Sequence record: PQ356295.1
DNA length: 64,000 bases
Source: Escherichia phage KKE7M
Direction: 5' to 3' (one strand)
The notes under the pieces are model-generated. The model did not search any database. It was given only the letters and a program-made list of their open reading frames with translations, and was not told the origin of the DNA. The position numbers and the translations under genes are program-made. Positions 37,017 through 56,076 of this stretch are shown here, in pieces. How positions within the stretch are numbered: position 1 is the first letter of the stretch; each line of letters begins with the position of its first letter.

Positions 37017-37508
37017 TTATACAGTCTTATACCCGACAATAGCAACCTGATTCGTAGGCTTCCAACGACCAATAATCTCACCAGAAATCTCTGTGCTACT
37101 GTTTATGTATTGGTAATGGGTATCATCATGATTAACCCACGCCATAATGTCAAGGGTAGGGGTTTTCACGTGTACCAGTAGTGTAGCCCATTCTGGGGCT
37201 TCTTTAATATCCACAGAATCTTGCCAATCTTCTTCGATGTGCCAAGTAGGTTCACCATCAACATCTGTAACGAAGAAACGAGCTTTCATACGTTTAAAGA
37301 ACATTGGTGTATACCCATGATCGCACTCTGGGATAAAATCATCCATCGTCTCGTCATAGGTGAAATATTGTCCATCTTTGTAATGAAAAGATGCACAAAA
37401 CAGTTCATTACGAGCAGGAACATGCCATACAGCTACAAAACTACGACCATGTGGATAATGTTTAACCTCTTGCATAGTTTTCTCCTTATTTTTATTCAAA
37501 AGAATCAA
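37017..37508 (-). CDS. hypothetical protein (163 aa)
   Basis: ORF. Confidence 0.5.
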   Translation of the reverse strand: MILLNKNKEKTMQEVKHYPHGRSFVAVWHVPARNELFCASFHYKDGQYFTYDETMDDFIPECDHGYTPMFFKRMKARFFVTDVDGEPTWHIEEDWQDSVDIKEAPEWATLLVHVKTPTLDIMAWVNHDDTHYQYINSSTEISGEIIGRWKPTNQVAIVGYKTV

Positions 37509-37836
37509 TTCGATTTTGTTCTATGTCAATTGCAGCATCTAGGATAAGTTTTAATGCTTCAAATTGCAAGTGTTCTTCTAAAGAGAAGACATATAAAACA
37601 ACGGATTCCAAGTAAGACAGCACCCCAAGACTAAGAGTTGCAATTTCTACTCCTGCATCGGAGAAGCCTGTTTGCAAAACTTCTTTGAAGAAACGTTGTT
37701 TATCAACAATAGCAGATAAAATAAGCGTTTTACGCTCCTCTGCTGATCGTACTGTGCAGTATATGTTGCTAAAAGAGTCCAGCCACATTTTGATCATACC
37801 TTGTCGGTACATAAGGATTTCAATATCAGCCAACAT
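37492..37836 (-). CDS. hypothetical protein (114 aa)
   Basis: Start refined to ATG with GAGGAG RBS. Confidence 0.45.
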   Translation of the reverse strand: MLADIEILMYRQGMIKMWLDSFSNIYCTVRSAEERKTLILSAIVDKQRFFKEVLQTGFSDAGVEIATLSLGVLSYLESVVLYVFSLEEHLQFEALKLILDAAIDIEQNRIDSFE

Positions 37837-37837
37837 A

Positions 37838-38005
37838 TTATTTCTCCTCTGGAGAGAGATTCGAATTGATTTGATAGTAAAAATCAAAATCCTTGTGTTG
37901 ATTGCACCATTCTTGAGCTTCTTTAAACGACGCAAATTGCATAGTGAATGTTGCCATCCACGTGTTCATATTTTTATTGAACTTGTCGATAAAAAATGTT
38001 TGCAT
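37838..38005 (-). CDS. hypothetical protein (55 aa)
   Basis: ATG with GGGAGG RBS. Confidence 0.35.
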   Translation of the reverse strand: MQTFFIDKFNKNMNTWMATFTMQFASFKEAQEWCNQHKDFDFYYQINSNLSPEEK

Positions 38006-38238
38006 TATTCCTCCCATTTTATCCAAAGGCAGTATTCTGGAACATAAACCTCTTTCCCTTTGTTATTCACAAAGGTGTACTCCACAAATTCTGCTTTATA
38101 TGTTTTGTTATATTCCTGTGCTGCTGGCACAGGACATTTTGTAATGCGCGTTTCAGTCCAACGGCGGTGTATAACCGCCTTGTTCTTTGGATCAAACGGA
38201 TGTATAAAGTGTGTTTTACTCATGTGCCATTTCCACAA
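38005..38238 (-). CDS. hypothetical protein (77 aa)
   Basis: ORF. Confidence 0.45.
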   Translation of the reverse strand: MWKWHMSKTHFIHPFDPKNKAVIHRRWTETRITKCPVPAAQEYNKTYKAEFVEYTFVNNKGKEVYVPEYCLWIKWEE

Positions 38239-38620
38239 GATTTTTAATCATAGTTTCTCGACAGAGATTCCACATATCTGAAGCAACCATAGAGGCATAT
38301 TCATCGGGGTTGGATTCTGGTAAAATCTCTTTGACTGCTTCTGGTGTCGGATTGCACATAGCAGGTAGTGCTTTAAGTGCATCTTCAATAGAGAGCTTCT
38401 TACCTTCACTGTAAATAATCTCGTAATCATAGTCATTTACATCTTCCGAAATATCCCGATCCAGGTAACGTACAGTGGAGTTATGCATTTTGTTCATAGA
38501 TTCACTAACACCAGCACCACAAAGCTGTGCAACTTCTTTAGAGATACAGTCACAAATAACAACTTCGTAAGGCTTTCCACCATAATACTGCGCATTATAT
38601 TTGATTTTAACAGACCACAT
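38216..38620 (-). CDS. hypothetical protein (134 aa)
   Basis: ORF. Confidence 0.5.
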   Translation of the reverse strand: MWSVKIKYNAQYYGGKPYEVVICDCISKEVAQLCGAGVSESMNKMHNSTVRYLDRDISEDVNDYDYEIIYSEGKKLSIEDALKALPAMCNPTPEAVKEILPESNPDEYASMVASDMWNLCRETMIKNLVEMAHE

Positions 38621-38630
38621 ATTACTCTCC

Positions 38631-39317
38631 TTATTTAACGTGTTTTAGCAATTCAATGTTAGCAGAATAGTTTTCACCACAATTAGTAACGCTCAACAGT
38701 GACCATTTACAAGAGAATACACCTTTTAGATGATCTGGAATACACATCAACGGAACATAAACTGTTTCTGAATCTTCTGTTTGCTCTGTTTTGTTAACAT
38801 TGCAACAAAATGGCAATACATCATCATGAATCATTTTACATTCACTCAAATTGTCTAACATATGTGAAACTTGTTCTGAAGTTTCAAACATTTCTGCTTC
38901 ACAAGCCAGTGCACCAACCACTTGATAAGCCTCTCCACACAAATCTTCTAGTTCTAAAATACGTTCAGACATAGTTTCGATGATTGCTGATCGTGCTTTC
39001 ACTTTAGTTTCTGCTTCTTTAATTTTATTCTCAAGTTCGGCAATGTACTTCAGTAGTGCACTAACAACATCTTGAGTATTTTCTTGATCATCTTGGGAAA
39101 TTTTTACCAAAGAAGAAGCTGCTTTGCAGCGCACTTTAGGCTCTACGTAGCCAAAAGTCATATTTTCCGAAGAAGATTGTTGTGAAAACCAGTGTTTGTT
39201 CGAAGAAAACACAGGTTCATCTTCAAACCAGAACACATCCCCAGTAATATCACGAGCCATGAAGTTTGCATTATCTGGAACTTCGTAACGATGCCCTTCA
39301 AACATAATCTCTTTCAT
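38631..39317 (-). CDS. hypothetical protein with coiled-coil segment (228 aa)
   Basis: Heptad-like LLKYIAELENKIKEAETKVKAR. Confidence 0.5.
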   Translation of the reverse strand: MKEIMFEGHRYEVPDNANFMARDITGDVFWFEDEPVFSSNKHWFSQQSSSENMTFGYVEPKVRCKAASSLVKISQDDQENTQDVVSALLKYIAELENKIKEAETKVKARSAIIETMSERILELEDLCGEAYQVVGALACEAEMFETSEQVSHMLDNLSECKMIHDDVLPFCCNVNKTEQTEDSETVYVPLMCIPDHLKGVFSCKWSLLSVTNCGENYSANIELLKHVK

Positions 39318-39901
39318 TACACATCCTCCATTTGGAACATCTCTTTGTGGTTAGAATAGATCTGTTTGAAAATCTTGTCAAGGCGTTCATATGATTCTTT
39401 ATGCTCTTGTTTCCATCCGTGATTTCGGATTTTATCTGCCAGGTCATAAACCTCGCATAAAACTTTGGCAAAGTTGGTATTATTTATAGCACAAGCCTCA
39501 AAACCTTGAACTAAACCCTCTACATCGTACCACGTATAGTCAGAGTCACTAGGAGGCTTTCCTGCATCGGCTAAACGTTGCCTTACCCATTCAATACGTT
39601 TTTCATTCAAATGGCACTTACCTTCTCTGCACTCTTGTTCTAATTCTTCTTTAGATTCATTGAATGGGTGAAGGACAGGAAGTTCTGCTTTTTGCAATTG
39701 CTCCAGGTATTCACCTACAATGCGCATAGCTTCACTGTGTGTACACTTTCTGCCTGTGTGCCAGTAACGGAAGATACTTTCTGTTAAACAGATGTTTTTA
39801 CTAAACATCGCATTGTCTTTAACATTCGATCTAGTAACCCAGTCTATATAATATACATAAAACTGCAATAATTCATAACTGCTTGGTATAATTTTACTCA
39901 T
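39317..39901 (-). CDS. hypothetical protein, paralog family member 1 (194 aa)
   Basis: Shares SxYxLLxFY, LHPFN, HLNEKRIEWV motifs with 40525-40893 and 42821-43186. Confidence 0.5.
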   Translation of the reverse strand: MSKIIPSSYELLQFYVYYIDWVTRSNVKDNAMFSKNICLTESIFRYWHTGRKCTHSEAMRIVGEYLEQLQKAELPVLHPFNESKEELEQECREGKCHLNEKRIEWVRQRLADAGKPPSDSDYTWYDVEGLVQGFEACAINNTNFAKVLCEVYDLADKIRNHGWKQEHKESYERLDKIFKQIYSNHKEMFQMEDV

Positions 39902-39910
39902 GACTTCTCC

Positions 39911-40078
39911 TTAGTTGTGCAAAATGTTATCGATCAGTATGACTAGTAGTACGAGGATAGAAGGGAGCAGGAATAGAAATCTTAACATTATGTGATGCGT
40001 GTGAGAAGCGGCTTTAGCTCCAGCCGCCAATAAGCCTACTAGTCCTACAATAAAGAGGAGTTGTTCAGGGACACCCAT
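39911..40078 (-). CDS. small membrane protein (55 aa)
   Basis: Hydrophobic; below ORF-track cutoff. Confidence 0.3.
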   Translation of the reverse strand: MGVPEQLLFIVGLVGLLAAGAKAASHTHHIMLRFLFLLPSILVLLVILIDNILHN

Positions 40079-40079
40079 A

Positions 40080-40304
40080 TTATGGAACACTTGGATACTC
40101 CGTAAGTTTAGCTAACAGTTGAATATGTGGACACGTAAATTGTTGTCCTGGATAGCGTGAGCTAATATCCTCCAGTAAAGCGATCACAGCATTGTGCAAT
40201 GCTTCGTAATCTTCATAATACACCATTTCTCCATTAGGATCTTCAACAATATCGCAGTGACAAGCGTGAGCAGTACACGCATCCCATTCCAGACGTTTTA
40301 CCAT
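40080..40304 (-). CDS. hypothetical Cys/His-rich protein (74 aa)
   Basis: CTAHACHCD motif. Confidence 0.45.
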   Translation of the reverse strand: MVKRLEWDACTAHACHCDIVEDPNGEMVYYEDYEALHNAVIALLEDISSRYPGQQFTCPHIQLLAKLTEYPSVP

Positions 40305-40313
40305 AAATCCTCC

Positions 40314-40532
40314 TTACTTATACATTTGATATGATACATAACGATTGCAATCAAGTGCGAGAAACTTTTCAGCATCCCTTTGATGCTTGAACACAATACA
40401 CTGTTCTTTTTTAGCTTCACTTTCACGAGCTTCTCTTGCCATATAATCACCTAAACGAACGATATTAGAGAACAATACGTATGCAAGAATAAGACAAACA
40501 GTAATTGCACAGAAAATTTTAAACTTAACCAT
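40314..40532 (-). CDS. small membrane protein (72 aa)
   Basis: Start refined to ATG with GGAGGG RBS. Confidence 0.45.
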   Translation of the reverse strand: MVKFKIFCAITVCLILAYVLFSNIVRLGDYMAREARESEAKKEQCIVFKHQRDAEKFLALDCNRYVSYQMYK

Positions 40533-40893
40533 TGTATCCCTCCATATCACGAATACGATCAATCACCCATTGTACACGTTCTTTGTTAAGGTGTGCAGTG
40601 CCTAGCTCTGTTTCCGTAAAGTAATGTGAGAAATCTGTATTAAATGGATGTAAATGGTTCAAACCCGCTTTCTTAAACTGTTCCTTCATTTCCTCTCGTA
40701 CAGAGGATTGGAGTTTTGATACATTTTCAACATCTTTTATCCAAGCGATGTTATATAAGAAGTCTACAAGACACGTGCAAAGACCATAGTGCTTTTTGCT
40801 AAAGTTTGTATCTTCTTGTTCCAACCACCACTCATAAAATTGTAGCAAATAGGGGCTGCTTTTCATGTTACACACTTTATTATTCTCTTGCAT
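40525..40893 (-). CDS. hypothetical protein, paralog family member 2 (122 aa)
   Basis: SPYLLQFYEWW, GLCTCL, LHPFN, HLNKERVQWVIDRI. Confidence 0.5.
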   Translation of the reverse strand: MQENNKVCNMKSSPYLLQFYEWWLEQEDTNFSKKHYGLCTCLVDFLYNIAWIKDVENVSKLQSSVREEMKEQFKKAGLNHLHPFNTDFSHYFTETELGTAHLNKERVQWVIDRIRDMEGYNG

Positions 40894-40902
40894 GGCTTCT
40901 CC

Positions 40903-41202
40903 TTAATGCCAGTCTACGATCACTGAATCTACAAAACCCTCTTTGGTGTTTAAAGCATACACCTTACTAAGTCCACGCTCTCGTAGTGCTTCCATAGCAA
41001 GATCAATCAAATCAACTTGGCGTTTCCTTGCTTGTTCATTTGTCGGGTAGTCATCCAAACCGAAAACAGATGGTTTAAATGCTTTGGAGTATTTACCAGT
41101 CTTAGCCTGATCATAACAGTCCTGAATGACTTCATCAATAGGAAACCACAAGCCTTCTCCACTTTGTTTTGCAATACAACGCAGTTTTTCTGTAACAGTC
41201 AT
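40903..41202 (-). CDS. hypothetical protein (99 aa)
   Basis: ORF. Confidence 0.45.
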   Translation of the reverse strand: MTVTEKLRCIAKQSGEGLWFPIDEVIQDCYDQAKTGKYSKAFKPSVFGLDDYPTNEQARKRQVDLIDLAMEALRERGLSKVYALNTKEGFVDSVIVDWH

Positions 41203-41420
41203 TCTTCCTCTCCTTTCAATTTACACTCAAAGATACCATTCTTAATGTTATCTGTCAAATAAAGGCTATCTTCTATCTCTTCTTTTGTATACACATAAGC
41301 CTCCTTTTCCACGTCAGTCAGACCTTGCATCGGAGCTAGTAGCCACCAGCCCCGCCAGTCAAACATAGGAGACTTATCAGATACACGAAGAATGTATCTG
41401 TCATTACACATATTATACAA
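41199..41420 (-). CDS. hypothetical protein (73 aa)
   Basis: ORF. Confidence 0.45.
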   Translation of the reverse strand: MYNMCNDRYILRVSDKSPMFDWRGWWLLAPMQGLTDVEKEAYVYTKEEIEDSLYLTDNIKNGIFECKLKGEEE

Positions 41421-41865
41421 TGTTCACATGAACATCTGCAACACCAATAAGAGAATAGACTTCAACTACACTCTGTGTACGATCCAGCTTGTAACGTTTT
41501 GCCTCTTTTTCAACTTCCTCACGGTAGATGGTTTCCACGATTGGAACTCCATCCACTACAAGCAGGTATTTCTCTTCATGCTTACTTTTTGGTGCTTCTT
41601 CTAATACCTCTACAAAGTATTCAAACTCACTCTCTACAAGCAATGTGTAACACTGAAGAAAATCTCCTTCATTTTGAGTGATAATTTCTTGCTCTCCTGC
41701 TAAGGATTGCAAAGAAGTGACACCATACCAGTCATCAATATCTAATACACGAAAATAGGAATCACCTAAGAAAGAAGCAATCCTGCTATTGAACTCAGAC
41801 ACATTAGCAAACTTACGGATATAAGATTCGTTCTTAAAACGATACACTTTACCAATTTCAAACAT
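41413..41865 (-). CDS. hypothetical protein (150 aa)
   Basis: ORF. Confidence 0.5.
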   Translation of the reverse strand: MFEIGKVYRFKNESYIRKFANVSEFNSRIASFLGDSYFRVLDIDDWYGVTSLQSLAGEQEIITQNEGDFLQCYTLLVESEFEYFVEVLEEAPKSKHEEKYLLVVDGVPIVETIYREEVEKEAKRYKLDRTQSVVEVYSLIGVADVHVNIV

Positions 41866-41876
41866 TACACAACTCC

Positions 41877-42059
41877 TTATTGTTCAATAGTAAAAGGAAT
41901 GATTTCACCATAACTGTGTTGCATTTGCATGGCATCCACTTCTGCTTCTGCGCGTTGTGCTAGTTCTAATGTTGCACAGATCTTGTAAGGGACAGTGCTG
42001 CATTGGTTCCAGTCTAGGGTATTCTTTGTTACTAAGTACACAGTAGTTTGTTTATCCAT
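41877..42059 (-). CDS. hypothetical protein (60 aa)
   Basis: ORF. Confidence 0.4.
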   Translation of the reverse strand: MDKQTTVYLVTKNTLDWNQCSTVPYKICATLELAQRAEAEVDAMQMQHSYGEIIPFTIEQ

Positions 42060-42074
42060 CTTCTTTTCCTCTCT

Positions 42075-42335
42075 TTAAACAGTATATTCGTGTGGAAGGA
42101 AAACATAGTCTTCTCCTTCAACAACATCAACTACTTCCCAATTCCAGCCAGGTACTTGGCTCATTGTCTTGAATGACACATAAGCAACTCCGCTGTAAGC
42201 TATATCGGCATCCAATATAAGAGGGAAAGCAACGTGTGTCAACCCCAGATAGCCACAATTATTCTCGATACACACCCTAATGCTTTTCATGTTATGCTCC
42301 ATTAAAGACGGGGCGTGTAGCGTTACGTTCATCAT
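42075..42335 (-). CDS. hypothetical protein (86 aa)
   Basis: ORF. Confidence 0.45.
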   Translation of the reverse strand: MMNVTLHAPSLMEHNMKSIRVCIENNCGYLGLTHVAFPLILDADIAYSGVAYVSFKTMSQVPGWNWEVVDVVEGEDYVFLPHEYTV

Positions 42336-42750
42336 TCACTGTAATAAGGTTTTTCATAACCATAACACCCTGAATATAGCCTAGCCAACGATGGCGTTTG
42401 GTTTCAGACATACCATTACACCCATCCTGAATTTCATTCAACATCCACAGCAAGTGGGAAGCACCTGTTTCACTAGTATCTGGATCTTCTACAGAACTAA
42501 GAATCGTTTCATAGCGTTCACAAATTTCTGGGTAGAATTCATAATCCTGTAGTACATCTCGCATTTCTTGAATGAAGTGACGAGCAATAGGTTTTCCACG
42601 AAAATATTCATTGAGGAAATCAATAACACACATCTCACTGCCTGTCACCACGGAAGGCTTTCCTATGTTAAATTGAACACTCACACCGCATTCTTTTACA
42701 AGATTATGTACACGCTCCGTGTTAGCAAGATACAAAGATACAGTTTTCAT
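42292..42750 (-). CDS. hypothetical protein (152 aa)
   Basis: ORF. Confidence 0.5.
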   Translation of the reverse strand: MKTVSLYLANTERVHNLVKECGVSVQFNIGKPSVVTGSEMCVIDFLNEYFRGKPIARHFIQEMRDVLQDYEFYPEICERYETILSSVEDPDTSETGASHLLWMLNEIQDGCNGMSETKRHRWLGYIQGVMVMKNLITVNDERNATRPVFNGA

Positions 42751-42820
42751 TTACACCTCTCATTAGTAGTTTGTTATGCGCGATATTGTATATCTTATGG
42801 AACACAGTGTACAGACATTT

Positions 42821-43186
42821 CTATTCAATGCAAGCATTATTTGCATCTTCGATTCTGTCTTTCACCCACTGCAATCTCTTTGGGTTGGTATGGCAAGAAT
42901 GTGTCTTACCTTCATCTTCATAACACAGAAGATCATAATTAAAGGGTAGGAAGGAGGATAGCCCAGCACACGTGAATTGCAGTTTCATCTCTTCCAGTGT
43001 TTTACTACGAACCATCTTGAAATATTCTATATCTTCTTCCGTAGGTTTTTTCTTTGACATAGTGGTTGCCAGGTAATCCATAAGGCAATTACACAAACCA
43101 ACATTCTCACGATGCATTGAGGAATGATCTTCCATCCATGCTTTGTAAAATTCTAACAGCAGAGGACTGCTAAGAGGAACACACAT
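42821..43186 (-). CDS. hypothetical protein, paralog family member 3 (121 aa)
   Basis: Start refined (AAGGAG RBS); SPLLLEFYKAW, GLCNCL, LPFN, RLQWVKDRI. Confidence 0.5.
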   Translation of the reverse strand: MCVPLSSPLLLEFYKAWMEDHSSMHRENVGLCNCLMDYLATTMSKKKPTEEDIEYFKMVRSKTLEEMKLQFTCAGLSSFLPFNYDLLCYEDEGKTHSCHTNPKRLQWVKDRIEDANNACIE

Positions 43187-43546
43187 ATCAGACTCCTTTA
43201 TAAATTTACGTTTCATGCTACACATCATACAGCGTCTTTTCATCTATTACAAGAACAGCAACCTAGAAACATCATTAATAGAGGAATTAGTATAGGATTT
43301 CCCTATCAATTATTCTATATATACCTAATATTTTTAACACACCCCTTTGTACATAATATAGACAAATAAATATCTATGCCACAAAAATTTTCCGGTATAC
43401 CCGATTTATTTCGACACACCCCCTTTTCATAAGCGTAAAGCCAATAATATCAATAACTTGCCGCAAAATACTGCTCGCTTGCGAGAGGTGCTTAACGCGA
43501 TTTTTAGCGCCCCCGATTTCTGCCGACCGTCCCCCTCAAATATCAA

Positions 43547-43561
43547 TGAGAATTATTATCA
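43547..43561. promoter_or_regulatory. Fur-box-like 7-1-7 palindrome TGAGAATTATTATCA
   Basis: 14/15 match to TGATAAT-N-ATTATCA. Confidence 0.45.
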
Positions 43562-43741
43562 TTTGCATTATCATTCAATGACTTATAAGACTTTTGATTA
43601 TTTTCTGAGCAAGAAAGGCACTACTCACAACAAAACAGATAAATTATAAGTAAATCAATGACTTGGCAAGTCTAAACATCTATATACACCTTGCCAAATG
43701 AAATGATCCTGCGTGAAATAGTGCTACCCGTGGAAGATAGC

Positions 43742-43756
43742 TGATAATGATTATCA
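43742..43756. promoter_or_regulatory. Fur-box-like palindrome TGATAATGATTATCA (perfect 7-1-7 match), with TATACT -10-like hexamer 14 bp downstream
   Basis: Exact match to Fur 7-1-7 consensus TGATAAT-N-ATTATCA. Confidence 0.55.
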
Positions 43757-44279
43757 TTTGCATATTTTCTATACTATAAAACTACCTAAAAATCAAGATA
43801 ATTCTGATTTATTGCGCTTTTAAGAGAATAGGCTCAACAAATAGGCTATAACTATGCTCAACAAATGATAGGTTATATGGGGCAATAGTATGAAAAACCA
43901 TCTATTCAGATATAAATAATTTTGCGCAATAATGGTGATATTTTTCTTGACAAGAAAGATTTCTTTGTGTTCACATAGCGTCCCCTGGAAGGTGGCGCAT
44001 TATGATCATCAATGTCATTGTTCACGATGTTTATTATTGAATAGCTTATTATATGTAGCTTATATTATAGCCAATGTTCCAAACATTAGCTAATAATAAC
44101 GCACCGCAACAATGTAAGGGATACAATATACCATGTATATTGTTGCGCTTGCAATTGTTGCAAGCTACATAAGCACAAATAATAACTATCGGTGATGGTT
44201 ATTATGTGGGGTGTGTAGTTGCGTTATTATTAGCCGCCTATGTGTCCGGCATAGGCTGCTAATGATACGCTTGCTAATT

Positions 44280-44640
44280 ATATTTCTTGTTATAATTATT
44301 GTATGAAATGATTACGGTATGAAATGATTATTTAGGTAATAGATAGTAAGGTAAAGATTAGATCATAAATAGATAGGATATTAATTATTTAGTAATGTTA
44401 CTAACAATTTAATAGTTACTTTGTGCAACAATTCGATAGATTATAGTTATAGTTTTAAAGGTTAGATAGATTATATTTAGCTTGGTAATGATTTATATTA
44501 GTTATTGTTGTTTAATATAAGGTTATCAATGAGATAGTAACAGTAAGTTATAAATAAAGGTGAAATAATTAGCTTTAATTTAGTTAGATAACTTATTATT
44601 TTATAGGTTAGATGGTCATAAGTTAAGAATGATTATCATT
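44280..44640. repeat. AT-rich iteron-like repeat block (TAGATAG repeats, 14-bp direct repeat GTATGAAATGATTA x2)
   Basis: Read directly; ORF-free. Confidence 0.5.
44624..44638. promoter_or_regulatory. Fur-box-like palindrome TAAGAATGATTATCA
   Basis: 13/15 match to 7-1-7 consensus. Confidence 0.4.
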
Positions 44641-44681
44641 ATTGCATTATGCAGTTTATTGCATAAATAATCAGCTATAAA

Positions 44682-44696
44682 TGAGAATGATTATTA
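44682..44696. promoter_or_regulatory. Fur-box-like palindrome TGAGAATGATTATTA
   Basis: 13/15 match to 7-1-7 consensus. Confidence 0.4.
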
Positions 44697-44903
44697 TTTA
44701 AGAGGAAAGACAAGAAAAAGGCTGTTTTTGCCAGATAGTTACATGGAGAAATTAAAAATAAGCGGTCTAAAACACGTTGTAAGCGCCTTATGATCTTCAT
44801 GGTATGGTTGTTCATCTGCTCCTTGATTAGCTCGATACCGCGATCTATTCACTTTTTTCGGTGAACGTTTTTGATAGGTAAAAGCTATCATCTTTATTTA
44901 GGT

Positions 44904-44930
44904 AAAAAGAAAGGGCGCTTTGTGCGCCCT
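44904..44930 (-). terminator. terminator hairpin GGGCGC-TTTGT-GCGCCC with flanking A/T tracts
   Basis: Downstream of minus gene ending 44946; same hairpin family at 46082 and 50473. Confidence 0.55.
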
Positions 44931-44945
44931 GGTGTGAAATGTTAT

Positions 44946-45329
44946 TTACTGATAAGCTGGATCGTTTGTTATATCAATCCAATGAGCTAAATTAATTTTA
45001 TTTTTTGCTTTCATTTTCTCGATCAAACGTTCGGCTAATGTCTCGGAACGAATATAAACATGCTCGCTAAAATCTTGCCCCGTTTCCTCGTCGATCATCT
45101 CGCGATATTCAATTTTCCCGATAAACGCATGATTCAGCGCATAAGTTTTACCCGTGTACCAGTTGTGCAAATGAATCTCACATTTATAATCATCGCTATA
45201 ACCTTCGGTTGTTCTAACTTCAACCAGATCGCCTTTAAACACTGATAAGCACCACATAGGATCACGATCTACAGCGCCGTTAAAGTCTTTACCGTTTACA
45301 GTAGCCGCCAGGTTGATGATATTGCTCAT
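44946..45329 (-). CDS. hypothetical protein (127 aa)
   Basis: Start refined to MSNIINL with GAGGAA RBS. Confidence 0.5.
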   Translation of the reverse strand: MSNIINLAATVNGKDFNGAVDRDPMWCLSVFKGDLVEVRTTEGYSDDYKCEIHLHNWYTGKTYALNHAFIGKIEYREMIDEETGQDFSEHVYIRSETLAERLIEKMKAKNKINLAHWIDITNDPAYQ

Positions 45330-45416
45330 GGTGATTCCTCGTTTACCGTTTAAAATGATTTGCCCTACGTGATAAATAATAATGTAAGCGCGATCCGGTG
45401 TCAATAAGAAAGTTAA

Positions 45417-45653
45417 TTATTTTGCATAATCAATAACAGCGCAGATTTTATCATTTACATCTTGTAAATCAAAAGCATAGGCGATCTTACCTTGCAATTT
45501 CCCACGGGTGAAACAGATACGATAAACGCCGTTTTTACTATCCTCTTCTGATTTTAGTATTTTTGCAACCGTTGCAATTAACAGATCATCAGAGTAAGCG
45601 ATAAAGCCACCACGTAAAATAGGTGATTTTTTGAGGATCATGACTTCTTTCAT
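45417..45653 (-). CDS. hypothetical protein (78 aa)
   Basis: ORF; promoter TTGACC-N17-TAATAT upstream (rc of 45702-45730). Confidence 0.45.
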   Translation of the reverse strand: MKEVMILKKSPILRGGFIAYSDDLLIATVAKILKSEEDSKNGVYRICFTRGKLQGKIAYAFDLQDVNDKICAVIDYAK

Positions 45654-46074
45654 TTTCTTTTTCCTGTTTTCGTTTTGGGTATGTTCTACCCTCTAAAAAC
45701 AATATTAAACTGCTATGATTTATCGGTCAATAGATGAGATTGTAAAGATTTGATAGTTTATTCCTTTGATGTTTTGTTGTTTGATAGTTATTAGCTATCA
45801 ATATATAGCGGGATCTTCCGGTGATTATCTTCCCCTGTCCCCAGGTGCCGCCCGTTCCATAATAATAATCAAAAGCAGGGTAAAAGGCAAGATAAAAAGC
45901 AAATTATTTCCTATGTGCTTTAAACGCTCTAAACAGCTTTATAACAGCTTTTTCATCCTGGTAAGGGGATTAATCATCCCTACCTTGTTTAAGCGGTTAC
46001 AGTCGGTTTTAGATGGTTTTACGCCACCTTTACGCCTATTCTTTACGTGTTGTTTCCATCGTGAAAAAAGAATA

Positions 46075-46107
46075 CAAAAAAGGGCGCTTAGTGCGCCCCT
46101 TTCTTTT
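46075..46107. terminator. bidirectional terminator hairpin GGGCGC-TTAGT-GCGCCC
   Basis: A tract before and T-rich tract after. Confidence 0.55.
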
Positions 46108-56053: not shown

Positions 56054-56068
56054 TGATAATGATTCTCA
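56054..56068. promoter_or_regulatory. Fur-box-like palindrome TGATAATGATTCTCA
   Basis: 14/15 match. Confidence 0.5.
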
Positions 56069-56076
56069 TTTACAAA

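Follow-up and report, generated by a model that had tools for sequence, protein, structure and literature searches.

In the 64,000-nucleotide (nt) window analyzed here, from Escherichia phage KKE7M (PQ356295.1), a block of small leftward genes contains three genes, designated A, B, and C (Table 1), that a sequence-only reading had proposed to be a paralogous family. Over the 5-kb region studied, identity is 97.9% with Escherichia phage JohannJBalmer (Bas62), the closest complete genome, and 95–98% with many other Justusliebigvirus genomes; judged by this identity, the phage of the window is a Justusliebigvirus (phi92-like, subfamily Stephanstirmvirinae). All genes of the block are labeled "hypothetical protein" or speculatively in these Justusliebigvirus records. 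The three minus-strand open reading frames (ORFs) lie where the sequence-only reading had placed them, including the start of C at the ATG at 43186 rather than at that of the longer ORF from 43243; the short start is supported by the AAGGAG upstream of it and by annotation of the 366-nt gene in two GenBank relatives. The counterpart of C in Salmonella phage UAB_1 is gp001; phi92 is without C, and its genome opens with the orthologue of the gene next after C in the window.

Table 1. Features of the paralog locus and the adjoining genome end, in window coordinates.
Feature	Position	Strand	Basis and remarks
Paralog A, 194 aa	39317-39901	-	ORF; orthologue of phi92 gp010; core to genus
A, N-terminal family domain (residues 1-112)	39566-39901	-	BLASTP, family HMM
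A, linker and C-terminal three-helix module (residues ~113-194)	39317-39565	-	BLASTP against ESCO13_00043
Paralog B, 122 aa	40525-40893	-	ORF; orthologue of phi92 gp006; core to genus
Paralog C, 121 aa	42821-43186	-	ORF; first gene past left terminal repeat; accessory
Shine-Dalgarno AAGGAG of C	43193-43198	-	6 nt upstream of ATG 43186, read in sequence
Sigma-70-like promoter match TTGTAA-17 nt-TATGAT just upstream of C	43224-43252	-	Consensus match only, weak
Homologue of the 343-bp direct terminal repeat of phi92 and UAB_1	43492-43834	.	Alignment to UAB_1

A, B, and C are true, anciently diverged paralogs under purifying selection. BLASTP aligns B with C at E = 1e-26 (40% identity over 115 aa), A with B at E = 1e-11 (30% identity over 114 aa), and A with C at E = 5e-8 (over the C-terminal 47 aa), and an independent family hidden Markov model (HMM), built from 141 representatives, matches A, B, and C with E-values of 4.5e-32, 4e-37, and 2e-34, respectively. 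This HMM detects exactly three copies in the six-frame translation of the window and exactly three, with no fourth even at E ≤ 1, in the complete JohannJBalmer genome (144,831 bp). Comparison of the window with its relatives gives ratios of nonsynonymous to synonymous substitution (dN/dS) of 0.07–0.12 for A, 0.04–0.11 for B, and 0.00–0.20 for C; thus, all three are real, constrained coding genes. That the likeness of the motifs is due to chance, or that the ORFs are not genes, has negligible probability in the face of the pairwise (1e-26 to 5e-8) and profile (1e-32 to 1e-37) E-values, the dN/dS values, and hundreds of homologues. The proposed three-member family is therefore upheld, and the possibility that its shared motifs might not be significant on pairwise and profile alignment is refuted. 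The motifs occur in the same order in all three proteins, as had been claimed, with small deviations from the wording given: they read SS(P)xLLxFY, (L/F)(H/L)PFN, and H(L/T)NxxRxxWVxxR(I/L), with GLCxCL present in B and C and NICLTE in its place in A.

No family could be assigned by the sequence-only reading; the three proteins are now placed in PHROGs 2510, 27059, and 6418. B, C, and A match phrog_2510 (E = 3e-26, 1e-22, and 5e-17, respectively), A also matches phrog_27059 (E = 1e-139), and all three match phrog_6418; in each protein the match to the domain of these PHROGs spans the whole ~105 residues. Every one of the three PHROGs is labeled "unknown function", and Pfam, NCBIfam, and PADLOC yield no match above the curated threshold for A, B, or C; none of the 141 family members has a Pfam match at E ≤ 1e-3. 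The family signature is SS-LxxFYxxW, GLC, EMxxQFxxAGL, PFN, YxxE, and (C)HxNxxRxxWV. B and C have all of its residues (L16, F19, Y20, W23, G37-L38-C39, E68, Q72, F73, P83-F84, N103, R106, W109, and V110), and A has all but GLC, with Thr at the Cys position. A PADLOC match to Cas12d (E = 0.0067, to a fragment) was dismissed as noise.

The family appears to be large and essentially phage-specific. When 1.84 billion cluster representatives (50% identity) were searched exhaustively with a profile, 781 proteins were returned at E ≤ 1e-3; most have 100–120 aa, a few have 250–400 aa, and some contain two or three domains in tandem. All members are named "hypothetical" or "uncharacterized" in the source databases. 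The matches in phages come from phages of Escherichia, Salmonella, Klebsiella, Yersinia, Erwinia, Pectobacterium, Acinetobacter, Xanthomonas, Rhizobium, Burkholderia, Achromobacter, and Delftia. Elsewhere, matches are few: one among 72,556 plasmids; one in bacterial genome contigs (Bacillus), which is spurious; and, in E. coli genomes, only the unrelated DUF551-type tail of a Salmonella mosaic gene. Two scans of IMG/VR gave only six loci, a broad-alignment protein search returned only three proteins, and a search of BFVD found uncharacterized phage proteins only. Eaa/DUF551-type mosaic proteins (P0125, P0127, P0129, and P0147) also contain the domain, as a module in their interior, and in the P22-like phage GE_vB_TR a domain-bearing gene lies just upstream of int. 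Neighboring genes in diverse contigs are unannotated small ORFs, save for one T4 gene 30.8-family ORF near the family member in contig L020.

The domain is predicted to be a compact, all-alpha unit of ~105 residues: the AlphaFold2 (AF2) model of B has six helices (predicted local distance difference test, pLDDT, 84.8; predicted template modeling score, pTM, 0.78). Comparison with solved structures, by fold or by sequence, identified no structural relative. Among the 141 representatives, P83 and R106 are conserved in 100%; C39 (139/141), Y20, F84, and W109 in ~99%; Q72 in 93%; S13 in 91–93%; and E68 and N103 in 91%, with H101 in only 74%, being replaced by Y, R, S, P, L, N, T, F, and others in the remaining 26%. 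Losses of the polar residues are distributed as expected for independent events; thus, there is no "inactivated" or "dead-enzyme" subclass of the kind expected of a catalytic site. The invariant residues would instead be fold determinants in the modeled structure, with S13 and N103 as helix caps, a likely E68/Q72–R106 polar network, a PFN turn, and an aromatic core of F19, Y20, W23, F73, F84, and W109. Binding specificity would reside in helix 5 and in residues 43–67 (from where helix 3 ends to midway through helix 4), which are high in entropy and rich in indels. The proteins are modestly acidic (family median isoelectric point, pI, 5.4; A, B, and C, pI 5.4–5.7 and net charge -4 to -6).

Several enzymatic assignments were considered and rejected. 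A metal site or Cys–His catalysis is ruled out by the conservation statistics; a papain-like or other Cys–His hydrolase is also at odds with the loss of H101, with the missing Cys of A, and with the predicted all-alpha fold. The hallmark of HEPN ribonucleases is an R-x4-6-H motif in an all-alpha domain; this motif together with similarity to the HEPN fold was not found here.

Paralog A differs from B and C in carrying a C-terminal extension. In the Phapecoctavirus ESCO13, ESCO13_00042 (108 aa) is a homologue of the N-terminal domain of A (E = 2e-13), and ESCO13_00043 (75 aa) is a homologue of its C-terminal part (BLASTP, E = 8e-7; phrog_25020, 1.6e-55); the two genes are adjacent, overlapping as TAATG. 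On these alignments, A fuses the family domain to a 75-residue partner that has a gene of its own in Phapecoctavirus, and such a Rosetta-stone arrangement (fused here, split in ESCO13) suggests that the domain works with a small helical partner. In the AF2 model of A, block-mean pLDDT is 86–96 for residues 11–110 and 48–69 in the C-terminal module. The 3' end of B overlaps by 8 nt the start of the next gene (40314–40532), which encodes a 72-aa protein that has a hydrophobic N-terminal stretch and is unrelated to the partner of A.

Orthologues of the three genes elsewhere in Justusliebigvirus are mostly >90% identical at the protein level. With the low dN/dS values, this indicates strong purifying selection, and the description of these genes as "rapidly evolving" is not borne out. 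The accompanying description, of diverged paralogs in an early-gene block, fared better: the paralogs are diverged, and they lie in a small leftward block for which an early or leading position is plausible. Presence and absence across related phages, which the sequence-only reading had proposed as a check, divides the three genes. In tblastn searches of 50,697 phage records, A and B were each found at ≥90% identity in 55 records, and C at ≥80% identity in only 34; thus, A and B look like core genes of the genus, and C like an accessory one.

Copy number, counted with the family HMM, also varies among phages. Two copies occur in phi92 (first 9 kb), four in EmilieFrey (Bas61), of which two are in tandem at the C site (MZ501063.1, 6104–6840), and seven in phiWec181 (24-kb stretch), of which three are tandem and leading; ESCO13 has two tandem copies as its first genes and at least one more, and a Skatevirus has one. 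Four consecutive copies are present in the T4-like Yersinia phage JC221 (Straboviridae; MN508817.1, 3323–4667), flanked by the genes for DNA ligase and the baseplate hub. In a neighbor-joining tree, B and C cluster with the leading Phapecoctavirus copies, and A occupies a long, separate branch; from this topology, the A, B, and C lineages look to predate the split between Justusliebigvirus and Phapecoctavirus. The second EmilieFrey copy clusters with the Phapecoctavirus type, and its DNA is 33–67% identical to C in the gene body but 93–100% identical in the last ~45 nt and downstream. The tail QWVKDRIEDANNACIE is, moreover, identical in many paralogs that are otherwise ~35% identical. The conserved last ~45 nt and downstream DNA, together with the shared tail, point to cassette exchange at a conserved 3' junction. 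As judged from these comparisons, variation in the family is a matter of copy gain and loss, tandem duplication, and cassette exchange, rather than of fast point substitution. In P0005, a metagenomic variant of 166 aa, the N-terminal domain of A is followed by the C-terminus of ORF 37492–37935, an arrangement that implies a natural deletion of ~1.5 kb with loss of the C-terminal module of A and of two Eaa-like genes.

The locus adjoins what is probably a physical genome end. A 343-bp direct terminal repeat is annotated in phi92 and UAB_1, and bases 1–1094 of UAB_1 align with window positions 43834–42743 at 96% identity; because the UAB_1 end aligns there, the left genome end is placed at ~43834, with the repeat extending inward from it. 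By this homology the block of small leftward genes opens ~300 nt past the left repeat, which makes an early or leading position plausible. The left end may also be the first to enter the cell, and the block may be transcribed early.

The surroundings of the three genes are similarly obscure. The whole leading block (38216–42750) is uncharacterized, and its ten neighboring small proteins have no credible Pfam match, the only one being to YkyA at a sub-cut-off E = 0.0035. The two genes downstream of A (38216–39317) have products of 228 aa and 134 aa, which some GenBank annotators call "Eaa-like", "ead/Ea22-like", or "DUF551", without a credible Pfam match; between the stop codon of A and the beginning of the 228-aa gene there is a 1-nt overlap. 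Around the terminus, ~1.7 kb (43244–44900) is AT-rich and ORF-poor, with several short direct repeats (GC content is 0.34 for 44001–46000), and is bounded by strong terminator-like hairpins at 44912–44930 and 46076–46104. The E. coli Fur-box consensus is GATAATGATAATCATTATC; near-matches occur at 43743–43761, 44625–44643, and 56055–56073 (four matches with ≤3 mismatches at three sites, against 0.06 expected from shuffles). One of them, with two mismatches, lies inside the terminal-repeat homologue, ~560 nt upstream of C, and within a 37-nt direct repeat (copies at 43532–43568 and 43727–43763, spacing 195 nt). These sites may be iron- or Fur-responsive early promoters, or merely AT-rich promoter elements. 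Over the region, four records of "Campylobacter phages" (A150, A145, C3, and A110a; MG065639, MG065645, MG065656, and MG065689) are 96% identical to E. coli Justusliebigvirus phages; Campylobacter jejuni is given as their host, a label that looks doubtful.

For function, we favor, with a probability of roughly 40%, the reading that A, B, and C are soluble, non-enzymatic early binding modules that act on a host macromolecule, each paralog with its own target or partner. The A lineage, at least, would act with its 75-residue helical partner, fused here and translationally coupled in Phapecoctavirus, and the sources of new specificity would be tandem duplication, the gain and loss of genes, and inter-genus cassette exchange, not rapid point substitution. 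The role itself may be one of host takeover or anti-defense. A bolder form of this proposal, which we consider possible but rather doubtful, is that the family is the founding set of an unnamed phage-specific superfamily, with no relative of solved structure, of "first-in" effectors that disable a conserved proteobacterial host function or an immune pathway, their specificity diversified by tandem "accordion" duplication and inter-genus cassette swapping at the 3' junction, and with the module reused in Eaa-type mosaics of temperate phages. Several points weigh against binding modules of this kind. These genes are nowhere mentioned in the literature searched; C39 and R106, conserved in 99% and 100% of sequences that are only ~35% identical, could mark a ligand-binding or catalytic site; and the phage group is sensitive to several defense systems (PMC8594841; PMC13463889). 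The argument from the leading end assumes that the phi92 termini hold here and that the left end enters first, and a promoter scan found sigma-70-like sites in the region to be no commoner than in shuffled sequence. A transcriptome covering early expression was not found.

The conservation of C39 and R106 would be accommodated if the domain is a small enzyme or a small-molecule-binding domain, with C39, R106, E68, Q72, and N103 forming a pocket where the N-termini of helices converge. Such a pocket might receive a nucleotide-like or anionic ligand, act as a sponge for an immune signal, or support thiol-dependent chemistry. Both residues persist in phages of alpha-, beta-, and gammaproteobacteria; in the model C39 lies at the N-terminus of helix 3 and R106 at the start of helix 6, with the conserved polar residues at helix starts and in loops, and the tandem two- and three-domain proteins are compatible with an oligomeric binding site. 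We consider this reading unlikely, though a credible competitor to the binding-module reading. A nucleic-acid-binding regulator with a helix-turn-helix-like core, controlling early phage or host transcription, is very unlikely. The fusion in A could also indicate that the domain is an adaptor or chaperone for a small protein encoded directly downstream, rather than a host-directed factor. The module fused to A is an overlapping downstream gene in Phapecoctavirus, B overlaps the gene for the 72-aa protein, and the mosaic Eaa-type proteins embed the domain among varying flanking modules; however, the genes downstream of A, B, and C are mutually unrelated, and family members are mostly stand-alone genes without a conserved neighbor. 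A role of this type is quite improbable.

It also seems improbable that the proteins are dedicated inhibitors of a single bacterial defense system, comparable to Ocr of T7 and placed first so as to act before the remaining DNA is exposed. The position of C as first gene after the terminal repeat, the leading tandem copies in Phapecoctavirus, the occurrence of C in 34 of ~55 genus members, and the expansion in copy number would all suit an inhibitor. Yet the proteins are not hyper-acidic, show no structural similarity to solved anti-defense proteins, and belong to a family that is very rare on plasmids, which commonly carry general anti-restriction genes; furthermore, A and B appear to be part of the genus core and evolve under strong purifying selection. 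In published phenotypes, the phi92-like group, with Bas62 as the nearest relative, is highly sensitive, indeed "exceptionally susceptible", to restriction-modification (RM) systems (PMC8594841), and Bas61 as well as Bas62 shows sensitivity to ARMADA II and, when it is overexpressed, to Zorya II (PMC13463889). A broad, Ocr-like anti-restriction role is disfavored by the modest charge, by the lack of likeness to anti-defense structures, and by these sensitivities. A narrower counter-defense role is conceivable.

The family is typical of phage "dark matter", ordinary but well delimited, and it adds no new mechanism. Its domain nevertheless recurs in hundreds of clusters and in phages of many Proteobacteria, and in two myovirus genera a gene for it precedes all others. 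The family is also experimentally tractable, with four copies in Bas61 and three in Bas62 of the BASEL collection, two in phi92, and natural relatives with and without C. If a target were found, hundreds of hypothetical proteins would be annotated at once, including modules of the Eaa proteins, long an enigma, of lambdoid and P22-like prophages.

Among known systems, T7 Ocr (gp0.3), an anti-restriction DNA mimic, is a parallel in that it too is small and acidic and is the product of the first gene at the genome end presumed to lead entry. The proteins described here differ in their net charge of only -4 to -6, in showing no similarity of fold, in occurring in RM-sensitive phages, and in having multiple paralogs; an Ocr-like DNA mimic was rejected as a candidate, with neither very high negative charge nor protection of the carrier phages from type I RM (PMC8594841) in evidence. 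Likeness to Crl, the sigma-S-binding protein, is weak and local (FYEWWLEQE versus FWGWWMELE), the scores (E = 0.09 and 0.013 for PF07417 and NF008217) are far under the curated cut-offs, the hhalign probability is 1.9%, and the domain here is all-alpha in the model; Crl was rejected as well. PHROGs 2510, 27059, and 6418 are automatic clusters that have been given no name or function and have neither a structure nor a Pfam model; a single domain family is divided among them, and they do not capture the paralogy, the leading position, or the fusion of A. The same domain does lie inside mosaic Eaa/DUF551 proteins of the "ea" region of P22-like and lambdoid phages, proximal to exo-xis/int, and Eaa-like or DUF551-annotated genes directly follow A in the window. 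The "ea" region, like the block here, is an early accessory block with largely unknown functions (PMC7093339; PMC10834534). Neither A, B, and C nor the mosaic proteins match Ead/Ea22 or DUF551 of Pfam, and the family profiles and the mosaic P0147 match no sequence of solved structure that would indicate homology to the coiled-coil and C-terminal domain of lambda Ea22, for which an NMR structure is reported; the reported pro-lysogenic activity of Ea22 is not transferable to this family. In contrast to the Eaa proteins, the domain in the window either makes up a protein by itself or is joined to another module, of 75 aa, and it does so in a virulent myovirus.

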